From Antedon mediterranea (taxonomy: Eukaryota; Animalia; Echinodermata): a DNA stretch of 64,000 bases. The DNA lies in contig NC_092679.1 in NCBI RefSeq assembly GCF_964355755.1, forward strand, positions 4,122,201-4,186,200, read 5' to 3'. Of the stretch, positions 23,119-38,998 are shown piece after piece (position 1 is the first letter of the stretch; every line of letters begins with the position of its first letter). The notes under the pieces are model-generated. The model was not told the origin of the DNA. It saw only the letters and a list, made by a program, of their open reading frames with translations, and searched no databases. The position numbers and the translations under genes were made by a program.

Positions 23119-26100
23119 TTAAATTTCTGAAGTTGTATACACATTTTCATTTGATGACTGGATATTGTCAATGCCTTCTAGAGTTTCTTTATCTTCATCT
23201 TCTTCTTCCACGCACTTTGTTTCCAAACGATCCATCATCTTATCGAGGTCATTCTTATCGTCTCTCTTCTTGTTAACTATGGAAAAAACATGGCAGAATA
23301 ATGCCAACATTGTCCGATTTAGTTTTCAGTAGTAGAAGTATATTCTGTTTTATTATTTTCAACAAATATATATTTGTTGTCTGGTCAGTCATTTCTTTCT
23401 CTTTGGTGGGTGCGTCACACATCTATTCTTTAAAAACATACATAGAATATATGTAACATTTTCATTAATATATTTTTATCTATTTTCTTATATGAACATG
23501 ATTATAATTTTCCTATGTTATATTTCTATAACTTAGTAGAATTACTTACCTCTATACATCTTCACTTTTCTTTGTAAGATATATATTACGAATACCAAGA
23601 TCAGTACAACACATCCTCCACAAACACCTCCGATGATGTAGGCCAAATTACTTTCGTCCTTTAAAAAATTGTTTAAGTGAATACTTGAATTGTTATGCAT
23701 GGTACAAGCAATACTTTGATGCCAACACGTTAAAAATTATTTGTTTAATATAGGCCTATATGTGTGTGTCCTACTTATGTGTTAACATAAGTCTGTAAAA
23801 CTATTAATTTTTGGAAAAACTGTATTTTAATTTGCATCGTATTTATAATTCTGTAATTCTCAGTTGACATTTTTATTTGTGCTATTGATTGCTAAACAAC
23901 AAACAATGATAACGTTAATACAATTGTTACGGTACAGTATATATACTAAATAAATTCTATAATGTTTACCTCTCCTGGGTTCTCTTTCGATTGTGGTGTA
24001 CTAGAAGAAACTAAAAGAAACAGATAGAAAGACAATAATTAATATACATATGCATTTTAAAGTTGATTGGATACACTTTGGTATAACAAAGTTGAAAATC
24101 GTGTTGGCATGTTCTACAAACAATTATTGTTTGAACAACGTTAACATTTCATTGTTATTTTTGCATTCTGAATAGTACAACCAATGTCACAAACCATCCT
24201 GTTTTCTATGAAATTTTCTAAATTGAGATTATAGAGTACGTACATATGACATTTTTTATATATAGATTGAAACGAGTATATACCTGCTATTAGACAAATA
24301 TACTTCTGTTACAAGCCTATCATGAATTAATTTTGTTATTTTTGGACTTACAAGGAATGTCACTGCAAATCCTTGATCCAATATCAGCTTCGGTATAGCC
24401 ATCACACTTCAGACATTCCGTCTGTCCTCTCTCAGGTTGGTAAAATCCTTGTGGACATTGCTCACACACTGCATCCTTTCCGCGATACGATCCAGGAGGA
24501 CAGTTTACTAAAGAAAATATACGCACAATATGTGTCAACTAAAGATAATAACAGTGAAATGTGATTGATCAAACAGACGTAGAGATAATACAGTACAATA
24601 CGCCATAGTGTATATTGATTTAGGCGAAACTTACGGCAAGTTCTTGATCCAGCGTCAGTATTAATGTAACCGTCACATTTCAGGCATTCCGTCTGTCCTT
24701 CTTTGGGCTGGTAAAAACCTACTGGACATTGCTGACAGACGGCAGGCAAGTTATTATTTCCACGATACGATCCGGGAGGACAGTTCACTAAAATAAACAA
24801 CAAAGGAAATGGTGTTTTCCCCTTTTCAATATTATTTCAATATCAAAATCAGAAATACACTATCAAATTTTATGTGACAAAAACAATGTGATGTGACCAT
24901 AATTATGGACATGATGATCATATCAGATCATATCACATATCGCTACCATATTTGGGCATATCACTACCATATTTGGTCACATCACACAGTTTGACAGAGC
25001 GTTATATGTACAGAACACAAAACAGAGGAGCGATCAGAAACATTTTGTGAACCAAAAGATAAAGAACAACTCACCACAAATATAACCGTCGGCGTGCGCG
25101 TATTGATGGTTGGGACAGATAGGACCGTTTAAACCAGAATTGAAGCCTGTCACTTCCAATACTTCATCTTGATGTTCAAATAGTTCACCTGGACTCAGCA
25201 AGTTCTGAAGTTGCACAACTTTGTCAAGGATATCGTCAATCTTATCTTTTACCCGTTGCGCCGAATCCTGACGACTTGCAGTTACGATATCAATAGAAGA
25301 TGCAGCCGTACTTTTTATTTCAAATGTTATCTGTGTAAGAAATGTTTTCCCTTGTGGATTGGACTCCTGATAGTTGAGACGTTTTACTTCAGGATCATTA
25401 TTACTAATGACATTTGTAATAGTATCTTCCAAAGATGCGTTTGATGACTTAGAAGAGTCTTCTCGATAAAGGTCTATGGTTATATTGGTTGAGTATTCCG
25501 GCATCGATATGTCAAGAATGTGAAGTCTAGCAGCATTTGAAAGCACTCGTCCGTGTTCGTTCCATGCTTCGCACGTATACCATCCATCTTGGGAAAAGTC
25601 TAGGCTTAATATCTCAATACTTGAACTATTCTGCCCTTGGATGGATTCCATATCTGATGACAGCGACTTCTGAAAATACCATTGATAGTCTGCTAGTGGC
25701 TGAGCTGAGGCTTCACAAGTGAAGTATGCGCCTTCAATGTTACCATGTTCAATTTCAGTATCTTGAGGATGCTCGCTGATAAAAGGAGCGAACTCAACTG
25801 TGACGTCACATTGTAACGACGACACCGATGTCACTTCATTGGAAGCCTGGCAGGTGTAAGTGCCAGTATGAGATGCATTTGCCTGTTTTATAGTTAGTGT
25901 GTTTGAATTTATTCCCTTTAGTATTTGACCATTGAACACCCAAGCAAATGTTGGCAAAGGATTTCCAGTTGCTTGACATGCCAGAGAGAAAACTTCTCCT
26001 TCGACTGCTATTATTTTTGGTTCTGGGTGCTGGGTGATTATAGGCGCTTCTAAGCATACATCGTTAGAATCTTTCAGAAAGGCAACCTGGTCTAGTACAG

Positions 26101-38100: not shown

Positions 38101-38998
38101 TTGTAATTACATTTATTAATAATCTAATCTAATATTTCTAAGAGATCGTTTAATTCGAATTCAGAAAAGTTAGAATTAAATTCGTCGCATAAAGTTTTGT
38201 TCGTCGCCATAGGATCTAGCGCTAAACATATGAAATACTAATCATGACACTAAGACCGCGAAATTTATCCAACAATAGTAAAGGTTGTAATATAATATAA
38301 TAATAATATAACAATTTATATAGCGCACATATCCACTAAAAGTGCTCAAGGTTATTGCGCGCATGTGCAGTAAACAATATATTAGGCACGCGACCGTTTC
38401 GTTGTTGCGACGGTACTGTGTTTTTTTTTTAAACATTTTTCCGCGCTCTGTCGGTTAGAGTTATAGAAGCTTTGATCTCAAACGGATGCATATCCTTCTA
38501 TTCCTTAATTTATTGACACACTCACAGCCGTAACAAAAGATATATGATACAACAACATGTTATATTGTGGTTTACAGTATTGGGCTAATTGTTATGAATA
38601 CGAACACTAAGTCCACCACTGCTCCTTGAGCACTGAGAATAAGACGCTATATAAATATCAATCATCATCACCACCACCATCATCATCACTTTCAATACAA
38701 TGTGTATCGATTAAGCAAAACAGGTTGTACTTTTAAACAATTATATTATAGTGAATGATGACATGAGCGCGTTTCTCTGTATACAACAAAATACTTCCTA
38801 ACTTTATTTTCGCACAATCTCCTTAAACTAAAACTAATTGGTAGTTTGTCCCACTCAATTAACGTTTTTGATAACTACTTTTGCTTGCCAAACACTTAAT
38901 ATCGAATTTAAAGAAAAAAAGTTAACTTACCGCCCTGGGCTCGGCACAGAAATGATAATATTTACTAATGAAAAACATATCAACAACGAAAACATCAT
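23119..38998 (-). CDS. Receptor copy 2, complete: 21 exons, 2526 aa, SP-EMI-NIM/cbEGF x8-Sushi x2-EGF-unknown-coiled-coil/Cys hairpin-furin-Ig x2-SEA-like-GCC2/GCC3 x2-TM-cytoplasmic tail
   Basis: Exons 38998-38931, 37896-37771, 37233-37127, 36948-36853, 36297-36175, 35971-35879, 35628-35512, 35095-35000, 32495-32382, 32188-32078, 31890-31768, 31542-31369, 31141-30965, 30836-29506, 29292-29142, 29031-25075, 24787-24635, 24507-24352, 24010-23970, 23658-23550 ([26 protein letters not shown]), 23276-23119. All GT-AG; total 7581 nt, divisible by 3, ends in TAA. Confidence 0.88.
24352..24787 (-). CDS. Two GCC2/GCC3 (ephrin-receptor-like) Cys-rich repeat exons
   Basis: NCPPGSYRG...[21 protein letters not shown] and NCPPGSYRG...[21 protein letters not shown]. 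Confidence 0.9.
25075..29031 (-). CDS. Copy 2 giant exon 16 (3957 nt)
   Basis: 1330-aa ORF with two I-set Ig domains ([15 protein letters not shown]...[24 protein letters not shown]...[10 protein letters not shown]), heptad helices and RRKR/RKKR sites. Confidence 0.93.
29506..30836 (-). CDS. Copy 2 exon 14: EGF domain plus unknown ~400-aa domain
   Basis: 404-aa ORF extended 5' to the acceptor at 30837; same length (1331 nt) as in copy 1. Confidence 0.9.
32922..33037 (+). pseudogene. 5S rRNA-derived sequence (SINE head, not a canonical 5S gene)
   Basis: tacggccatac...gaagttaagc...ggatgggagaccg...gggtgctgta; diverged, with no oligo-T terminator after it. Confidence 0.8.
32922..33260 (+). mobile_element. 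Composite SINE with 5S rRNA-derived head, tRNA-like segment, core and A-rich tail, nested in the LINE
   Basis: 32922-33037 aligns by eye to 5S rRNA. It is followed by tggtgtaatggt...ggttcgagg A/B boxes, catccttaggcaagatgcttt and an (aaatacaaaa)n tail. Empty site in the copy 3 LINE near 51340. Confidence 0.8.
36386..36655. repeat. 25-bp minisatellite (tacagtattaaaataaaaagtgtag), about 10-11 identical units
   Basis: Directly visible; ~1.5 units at the paralogous site ~9832-9870. Confidence 0.95.
38011..38506. mobile_element. MITE with ~22-bp TIRs
   Basis: aaggaatagaaggatatgcatc ... gatgcatatccttctattcctt. Confidence 0.65.

Follow-up and report, generated by a model that had tools for sequence, protein, structure and literature searches.

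A furin-site-bearing, membrane-anchored crinoid protein with a predicted coiled-coil spike belongs to an uncharacterised animal family

A spliced 21-exon gene in a three-copy locus

The window, a stretch of 64,000 nucleotides from the crinoid Antedon mediterranea, holds three tandem copies of a gene, one of which (copy B) has 21 exons (Table 1). A preliminary description had proposed copy B as an in-frame model, and the model stands on rebuilding: all 20 introns are GT-AG, and the longest stop-free frame runs for 1349 aa, where shuffles (n=100) reach a maximum of 188. P0007, a public NCBI/UniRef protein, matches the 2526-aa model letter for letter, although it may be the same genome's annotation and so counts as a second prediction without independent weight. 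Searches for exons 1-2 of copy C did not find them. The preliminary description mentions neither the two tandem copies nor the conserved helical domain that opens the membrane-bound part.

Table 1. Features of the locus, in window positions; residue numbers refer to copy B
Feature	Position	Strand	Basis
Copy A: intact exons 1-16, continuing past the window edge; equals the start of public protein P0001	1..18015	-	
Copy B, whole gene: 21 exons, 7581 nt, 2526 aa, single terminal stop	38998 to 23119	-	
Exon 1: start codon, predicted signal peptide	38931..38998	-	hydropathy 2.2, aa 1-19
Exons 2-3: EMI-like domain, aa 23-100, six Cys, CCSGW	37127..37896	-	Pfam EMI below cut-off
Exons 4-11: eight EGF repeats (three NIM-like, five calcium-binding)	31768..36948	-	Pfam, motif patterns
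Exons 12-13: two Sushi domains	30965..31542	-	Pfam
Exon 14: ninth EGF, small beta domain, start of predicted beta-meander	29506..30836	-	no Pfam match
Predicted Ig-like sandwich in exon 14, aa 549-645	30717-30427	-	structure model
Exon 15: predicted beta-meander strands	29142..29292	-	structure model
Exon 16: predicted four-helix bundle inserted in beta-meander, aa 1059-1178	28505..28864	-	structure model
Predicted outgoing helix of spike, aa 1321-1417	27788..28078	-	structure model
Predicted Cys-rich beta-hairpin, 16 Cys, aa 1418-1575	27314..27787	-	structure model, alignment
Hairpin apex, low confidence, with a moderately amphipathic helix	27643-27458	-	model pLDDT <50
Predicted returning helix of spike, aa 1566-1668	27035..27343	-	structure model
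Furin motifs RRKR (aa 1742-1745), RKKR (aa 1753-1756)	26771..26815	-	sequence; low-confidence linker
Predicted post-furin helical domain, four invariant Cys, aa 1783-1995	26054..26692	-	alignment, structure model
Two Ig domains	25514..26047	-	Pfam
Unnamed 130-aa domain, possibly SEA/ferredoxin-like (from pattern, unfolded)	25124..25510	-	Pfam chance-level only
Exons 17-18: two GCC (Ephrin_rec_like) repeats, above cut-off	24352..24787	-	Pfam
Exons 19-20: short stalk, transmembrane helix aa 2445-2467	23550..24010	-	
Exon 21: acidic cytoplasmic tail with ENVYTTSEI at its end, unconserved across the family	23119..23276	-	
Copy C: exons 3-13 + 19-21, single open frame	47997..56555	-	core exons 14-18 missing

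Most of the tested junctions are spliced in run X1, which we presume to be RNA although its record carries no RNA label. Introns 18, 19 and 20 are spliced out, at GT-AG ends, in joints of X1 that the three other runs lack; the high-depth 3' joints with other letters may come from an allele or a paralog. One X1 contig contains a stretch whose edges coincide with those of exon 14 (1 other letter) together with 1198 nt upstream, compared with the 1128 nt that exons 5-13 total, and a contig of equal depth (117.7) matches exons 13 and 10. Two further contigs extend from exon 16, one by 154 nt (exon 15 is 151 nt) and one by 301 nt (exons 17 and 18 sum to 309 nt); no contig among the matches listed bridges the exon 14/15 junction. 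The gene is real and spliced; contigs join head exons to core exon 14, and the earlier reading of the exons as one gene is supported.

A variable head on a conserved core

Pfam recovers the domain order read earlier from the sequence: eight EGF exons, two Sushi domains, tandem Ig domains and two Ephrin_rec_like (GCC) repeats. The head begins with an EMI-like domain that is single, N-terminal and equipped with six Cys, in agreement with PMC11990869; it scores 18 bits on the exon-3 fragment (cut-off 25) and is not listed for the whole protein. A CCxG[YW] motif before the first repeat is a Nimrod/Draper feature, as is the NIM repeat, with consensus CxPxCxxxCxNGxCxxPxxCxCxxGY, of which the cited paper itself applies a relaxed version (PMC4073527). 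The motif is present here as CCSGW at aa 86 and in 4/5 crinoid proteins tested, and is missing in Nematostella; strict NIM repeats number 0 in the 6 proteins tested. One NIM-like repeat of this gene has exact Cys spacing and two fit the relaxed pattern, and they are interleaved with the five calcium-binding EGFs. Neither NPxY nor YxxL, the tail motifs typical of Draper/MEGF10, occurs in the C-terminal 130 aa of either copy A or copy B. The Nimrod/Draper label proposed before is weakened: the CCxGW motif and three relaxed NIM-like repeats are present, but strict repeats and tail motifs are lacking and calcium-binding EGFs intervene. The head is variable across the family, with EMI in 7/34 and Sushi in 9/34 long homologues, counts made with crinoid-built profiles on models of which several are 5'-incomplete.

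What the family shares lies further in. This is an uncharacterised family, defined by an unnamed core of ~1,450 aa and not by the variable Nimrod-like head. Named members come from Nematostella, brachiopods, annelids, molluscs, hemichordates and amphioxus. The architecture extends beyond this genome, since its domain order recurs in a 2522-aa protein of Nematostella, and one Lingula member carries a C-terminal chitin-binding domain. Profile searches with alignment A1 were dominated by Ig columns, and 12 Ig-only matches (P0107-P0118) were excluded from later counts. Relatives of P0015 were absent from prokaryote genomes and viral contigs in a search sensitive to close relatives. No named orthologue appeared in the searches made, in line with the earlier view that no named gene combines these parts, and a literature search, with most subscription literature outside its reach, found no description of the family.

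Exons 14 and 15 and the non-Ig part of exon 16 have no Pfam match. AlphaFold models (pLDDT 78-80) predict a one-faced beta-meander from which a coiled coil runs out and back, capped by a disulfide-rich beta-hairpin, bearing out the coiled-coil/Cys hairpin spike first read from sequence. By residue counts rather than model coordinates, the coiled coil would span ~15 nm and the hairpin ~13 nm if both were straight. Across the alignment many meander strands have one face that is 0.77-0.96 hydrophobic and an opposite face at 0.1-0.4, and C1418, C1423, C1427, C1568, C1575 and four post-furin Cys are invariant (alignment A1; alignments held only 50-53 rows). Foldseek returned 0 matches at E<=0.001 for aa 1004-1995 against PDB and viral structures, and 6 for aa 549-1346 against PDB, with query TM-scores <=0.12, the local ones Ig-like. 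Generic four-helix bundles filled the VIA lists, which also served for the perforin-2/MACPF fold comparison, so the meander and spike were barely probed and fold novelty is not established. Leads from the ESM Atlas were all below 0.9 (bacterial hypothetical proteins 0.89, DUF6603 0.78), and the term DUF6603 was not found in the literature search.

Furin motif, hairpin tip and copy divergence

The furin motif that had been noted after the spike is kept far above chance: it stands at the spike's end in 104/121 homologues against 27/2,315 control windows, and in 50/63 after thinning to <60% identity. The strict motif is missing in the tested window in 17/121, including Nematostella. Its linker has low pLDDT and lies between two folded units. 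Family tails vary in length from 5 to 119 aa and have no motif in common, and a TM helix is undetected in 9/34 long homologue models, which truncated models may explain.

In short-tip members (86 homologues) aromatic residues are frequent at the apex (0.19 vs 0.07 elsewhere in the unit) and acidic ones almost lacking (0.01 vs 0.12). The crinoid apex is basic (pI 9.2) on an acidic chain (pI 4.5) and in this copy only mildly hydrophobic, the best 17-aa window (1.08) falling outside it. The tip measures ~50 aa in molluscs, brachiopods and hemichordates and 140-250 aa in crinoids, Nematostella and unnamed members; only 12/37 long tips exceed 1.5 in hydrophobicity, and some, such as P0043 and P0106, carry hydrophobic helical inserts at the apex. 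Long and short tips split across one branch (SH-aLRT 99) of a quick, unrooted tree of 42 rows with Branchiostoma left out and the tip not parsed.

Between copies A and B, non-synonymous density is ~2x that elsewhere in the hairpin (p=9e-6) and the EMI domain (p=0.002), and dN/dS is 0.32 overall and ~0.6 in the hairpin, both <1; with two sequences and regions picked after folding, relaxed constraint fits equally well. Against Anneissia the hairpin shows no extra divergence (44-53%, neighbours 43-67%). Local expansion has recurred: one Anneissia contig bears four copies, a single Mya chromosome bears several, and Lingula and Ptychodera have pairs.

Discussion

What might such a spike be for? Our preferred reading, held tentatively and at somewhat less than even chance, is a furin-matured, membrane-tethered protein whose spike tip engages foreign or apposed membranes. 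Furin in the secretory pathway would cut the 2526-aa precursor, leaving an outer chain of 190 kDa and an anchored one of 86 kDa, and the post-furin helical bundle would hold the outer chain without a disulfide until shedding. The disulfide-braced tip might then bind microbial or neighbouring cell membranes, for recognition or defence, with the EMI/EGF/Sushi head as an accessory binding rod and the tail probably contributing little signalling. We discarded the idea of a disulfide bridging the furin site (C1698-C2077): P0105 has only one of the two Cys, and in molluscs C1698 lines up with one member of an intra-domain pair.

The apex chemistry of short-tip homologues resembles that of the perforin-2 P2 hairpin, which PMC6989145 describes as membrane-binding, disulfide-braced and basic with a hydrophobic tip. 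Perforin-2/MPEG1, in the same paper, is likewise a single-pass precursor with a long disulfide-braced hairpin, but here there is no MACPF match in Pfam scans of the exons or whole protein, the hairpin would sit on a long coiled coil, and there is no sequence match, nor a fold match in lists filled by generic four-helix bundles. Besides apex chemistry, the conserved furin motif, the position of its linker, the invariant Cys, local expansions, A/B change in hairpin and EMI domain, motif-free tails and the chitin-binding end in Lingula support this membrane-engaging spike; dN/dS <1, a hairpin no faster against Anneissia, an apex that is mildly hydrophobic and poorly modelled, the 17/121 homologues lacking the motif and the small alignments weaken it.

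The main rival is a coat, matrix or adhesive protein, in which furin would detach the outer chain from an anchor serving as secretion chaperone and so let it polymerise via coiled coils and hairpins. Its model is the zona pellucida-domain proteins, in which a conserved furin site separates a large ectodomain from the membrane anchor and which polymerise once released; the furin site is similarly placed here, but there is no ZP domain and the anchored part retains ~690 aa of folded ectodomain. This rival would fit the conserved furin motif beside an unconserved tail, the five calcium-binding EGFs, 29 N-glycosylation motifs, purifying selection overall and the 9/34 models without a TM helix, as well as the EMI-like domain, such domains being found mainly in matrix proteins (EGFL7/8, EMILINs, multimerins, MEGF6) in Table 3 of PMC11990869. 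We consider it a serious but doubtful alternative: Pfam scans give no ZP, collagen or C1q domain, the TM-less models may be truncated predictions, and the aromatic, acid-free apex of short tips and the faster change of the hairpin are left unexplained. That the one-faced meander forms a hydrophobic groove, docked on a target membrane by the spike in a lipid-binding or lipid-transfer protein, would account for the one-sided strands across the alignment, and ApoB100 comes 28th in the Foldseek ranking (E 4e-3); with a TM-score of 0.11, an rmsd of 29.5 A, equally good LptD and complement matches, and the protein's own helices able to pack the hydrophobic face, we find this improbable.

Still less probable is a cell-cell fusogen or pore former, whose spike would insert into a target membrane and refold. 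A long coiled coil, furin priming, the hydrophobic apex inserts of some long-tip members and a weak match of the core profile to influenza HA2 (best E 9e-5) point that way, but in none of the 104 homologues with the motif (0/104) is the furin site followed by a hydrophobic peptide (mean -0.65, max 0.28; threshold 1.0), which disfavours a class I form of the cell-fusion role suggested in the preliminary description. Moreover, the apex sits on the chain without a TM helix, a Foldseek search of PDB and viral structures with aa 1004-1995 stays empty at E<=0.001, and Pfam finds neither MACPF nor another pore-forming family. The HA2 match spans helix-rich positions and tropomyosin matches too; we set it aside as likely coiled-coil bias (no shuffle control). 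Class I viral fusion proteins such as HA have the furin-type processing and long helices that are predicted for this family, but differ from the antiparallel intrachain hairpin predicted here on an unanchored chain. A Draper/MEGF10-type engulfment receptor, signalling through its tail and bearing an unusual insert, seems very improbable. Like EGFL7/EGFL8, MEGF6 and Draper/MEGF10/Nimrod, the protein has a single N-terminal six-Cys EMI-like domain and a CCxG[YW] motif, followed by EGF repeats; here CCxGW stands directly before a NIM-like repeat, there is a single TM, and copies B and C have one ENVY tyrosine in common. Yet that tyrosine motif is missing in copy A, strict NIM repeats, NPxY and YxxL are lacking, the head makes up <1/4 of the protein and is missing or different in most homologues, and a furin cut would part it from the tail. 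The order EMI, plain EGF, calcium-binding EGF is closer to EGFL7/8 than to Draper, and one Mya homologue is auto-named EGFL7-like; from all these EMI-EGF proteins the family differs by its ~1,450-aa unnamed core with Ig and GCC domains. SVEP1, SCUBE and Uninflatable-type proteins share its EGF, Sushi and GCC/Ephrin_rec_like modules but are without the spike and post-furin bundle. VWA, HYR, pentraxin and CUB are domains of SVEP1/SCUBE-type proteins, and Pfam scans of P0007 (E<=1) and the exons (E<=0.1) gave none of these, nor LamG.

A bolder version of the membrane-engaging spike, which we think unlikely, would make the family an animal-wide membrane-attack or grappling machine of cnidarian-bilaterian age, its furin-primed 25-nm spike stored on the anchor and fitted with an exchangeable tip, antimicrobial-peptide-like in molluscs, brachiopods and hemichordates, for use against microbes or non-self cells; its fold would have no kinship with MACPF or known fusogens. 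A spike that attacks or grips membranes would add a new effector class to invertebrate immunity, and one that polymerises would represent a new matrix module. A core of ~1,450 aa with no Pfam family or convincing match to a solved structure is kept across cnidarians, lophotrochozoans and invertebrate deuterostomes, and the furin site and Cys pattern are maintained with it over the same range. Defining the family provides a new structural target, and direct tests are possible in Nematostella, amphioxus and mussel haemocytes. Its members now stand in databases as HMCN1-like, FBLN5-like, MATN2-like or EGFL7-like, labels that come from the flanking repeats, or as 'uncharacterized'.

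Gene model and tandem copies

The 21-exon in-frame model of copy B, the gene under study, stands as the preliminary description drew it: on rebuilding, every intron is GT-AG and the 2526-aa product has a single terminal stop. Exon 16 holds an open frame of 1349 aa, against a maximum of 188 aa in shuffled sequence (100 shuffles). Existing annotation lists copy B as an uncharacterised gene. Public protein P0007 matches the model residue for residue, and P0006, which is shorter, diverges past exon 20. Splice support comes from X1, one of four sequencing runs compared with the window, and all of it is qualified by X1 being RNA on a tool's guess. 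Introns 18-20 are skipped at their GT-AG ends in X1 contigs and not in the three other runs. Two X1 contigs prolong exon 16 by 154 nt and 301 nt, and none among the matches listed bridges the exon 14/15 junction. A further contig spans exon 14 exactly (one other letter) and continues upstream for 1198 nt, a length that exons 5-13 (1128 nt) and part of exon 4 would account for; subject to the guess about X1, this favours one gene over separate genes for exons 1-13 and 14-21.

The window contains three tandem copies. Copy A is intact over the stretch that can be read and forms a prefix of public protein P0001. In copy C, exons 3-13 and 19-21 still form a single reading frame, but exons 14-18, and with them the entire core (aa 549-1995 of the copy B protein), are gone. 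What is left is a natural core-less version, an in-frame EGF-Sushi-TM-tail; as no exons 1-2 turned up for it, copy C may encode a short receptor or may be a pseudogene. Copies C and B agree at 520 of 522 nt in exons 9-12, suggesting that duplication or conversion took place recently. The nearest relatives that carry a species name are all crinoid genes: four that share one Anneissia japonica contig (50-52% identity) and three from Antedon mediterranea (53-62%).

Ig-gene remnants lie upstream of copies B and A, so the Ig gene belonged to the duplicated unit. The intron 8 retrotransposon carries a reverse transcriptase (Pfam RVT_1, E 1.5e-25) and is absent from copy A. The 5S match (full-length, Rfam 71 bits) opens a ~335-nt insertion, likely a 5S-derived SINE. 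The insertion occurs in copy B, not copy C, and has very high depth in every run.

Features of the locus, in window positions
Feature	Position	Strand	Remark
Copy A	1-18015		
Copy B	38998-23119	-	
Copy C	47997-56555	-	
Tandem repeat	36378-36655		intron 4, ~25-nt units
Dispersed repeat, very high depth	24883-24990; 35270-35392		short copies, introns 16 and 7
Broken non-LTR retrotransposon	33237-34920; 50956-54153	+	intron 8 of B and C
5S rRNA match	32920-33040	+	
Ig-domain gene	~59880-61790	-	upstream of C; apparent signal exon ~61790, Ig exons ~60690 and ~60190
Ig-gene pieces	42108-42509; 21736-22173		upstream of B and A

Domains and predicted fold

The EGF, Sushi, Ig and Ephrin_rec_like modules of copy B are recognised by Pfam; EMI scores under the cut-off, and aa 549-1995 have no match. 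Two AlphaFold predictions cover this core. The aa 549-1346 model (50 alignment rows, pLDDT 79.6, pTM 0.73) comprises, besides an Ig-like sandwich and a small beta domain, a long beta-meander into which a four-helix bundle is inserted. The aa 1004-1995 model (53 rows, pLDDT 78.5, pTM 0.62) gives the meander, a ~97-aa helix, long strands (1425-1465 and 1527-1564) flanking a low-confidence apex, a ~103-aa returning helix, three closing strands, a disordered linker in which the two furin motifs lie, and lastly a helical domain. The helices of the spike are predicted to pair antiparallel, as read from secondary-structure pattern and Cys symmetry rather than coordinates; from residue counts, the coiled coil would be ~15 nm and the hairpin ~13 nm long if straight. 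Fold searches of the core returned only generic Ig-like and four-helix matches, a result that falls short of proving the fold new.

Family range and furin site

Searching 1.84 billion representatives with aa 1004-1995 gave 89 matches at E<=0.001 and 31 at 1e-10. Taxa were checked for 20 of the 89; all 14 that were named are invertebrate (crinoids, Nematostella, Branchiostoma, Glandiceps, Ptychodera, Lingula, Liolophura, bivalves), and no vertebrate, arthropod or nematode name came up in this check, which covered a minority of the representatives. A second search (37 matches) brought Mytilus, Dreissena and Owenia. Among 34 long homologues that retain the whole core, Ig follows the core in 34 and EGF precedes it in 32; a TM helix was detected in 25, GCC in 9, Sushi in 9 and EMI in 7, counts from crinoid-built profiles that under-detect distant modules. 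A 2522-aa Nematostella protein has the same domain order as copy B, its EMI-like head judged by eye. Judging by these counts and this order, what stays constant in the family is the series of core, furin linker, helical bundle and Ig, and head and tail vary.

RxK/RR stands at the spike's end (60-aa window) in 104 of 121 homologues with both flanking units, or 50 of 63 after thinning, against 27 of 2,315 windows elsewhere. Near-motifs occur in several of the 17 others and are absent from that window in Nematostella and Glandiceps. An inter-chain disulfide across the site found no support.

Spike tip

Tips were parsed in 123 of 136 homologues with a spike: 86 short (mostly ~50 aa) and 37 long (~140-250 aa), which form separate groups on a quick tree, unrooted and calculated from sequence outside the tip. 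Short apices are aromatic-rich and nearly without acidic residues, resembling the aromatic, acid-poor apex chemistry of the membrane-binding P2 hairpin of perforin-2, as described in PMC6989145. Long apices differ among themselves; a 17-aa window >1.5 occurs in 12 of the 37 and not in that of copy B, which is basic and has a moderately amphipathic helix. Copies A and B differ at dN/dS 0.32, with ~2x non-synonymous change in hairpin and EMI, a comparison of two sequences in a region chosen post hoc, dN/dS still <1.

Discussion

What might such a protein do? Our tentative preference is for a protein matured by furin and tethered to the membrane, with a spike tip that would bind foreign or apposed membranes. 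Furin would cleave at the linker past the spike, the post-furin bundle would retain the outer chain after the cut, and the role may be in defence. A shed matrix or coat protein, though rather doubtful, fits nearly as well; EMI domains are common in matrix proteins too (PMC11990869).

Other readings are weaker than these two. Many meander strands show one-sided hydrophobicity in the alignment; a lipid transfer protein is unlikely. A fusogen or pore former seems slightly less likely still: class I fusion proteins have a hydrophobic stretch after the cut, whereas here the 20 residues C-terminal to the furin site contain one in 0 of 104. Least probable is a Draper-type signalling receptor. The Nimrod/Draper-type head of the preliminary description survives in its likeness to EMI-EGF proteins and in CCxG[YW]; no repeat of the head matches the strict NIM consensus of PMC4073527, and the tail has no NPxY/YxxL, so we rejected filing copy B as Draper/Nimrod. 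SVEP1/SCUBE proteins share GCC and Sushi, but their other domains are absent from copy B.

The result listings of literature searches by gene ids and terms showed no description of the family. A furin-processed modular surface protein is an already known general type; what seems not to have been described before is the core and the fact that it is conserved. Among family members, P0089 (3314 aa) ends in cadherin repeats and a TM, Lingula P0016 and P0101 carry a C-terminal chitin-binding CBM_14 domain, and Anneissia P0003 and P0004 have one and two extra copies of a ~43-aa internal repeat in the post-furin helical domain.
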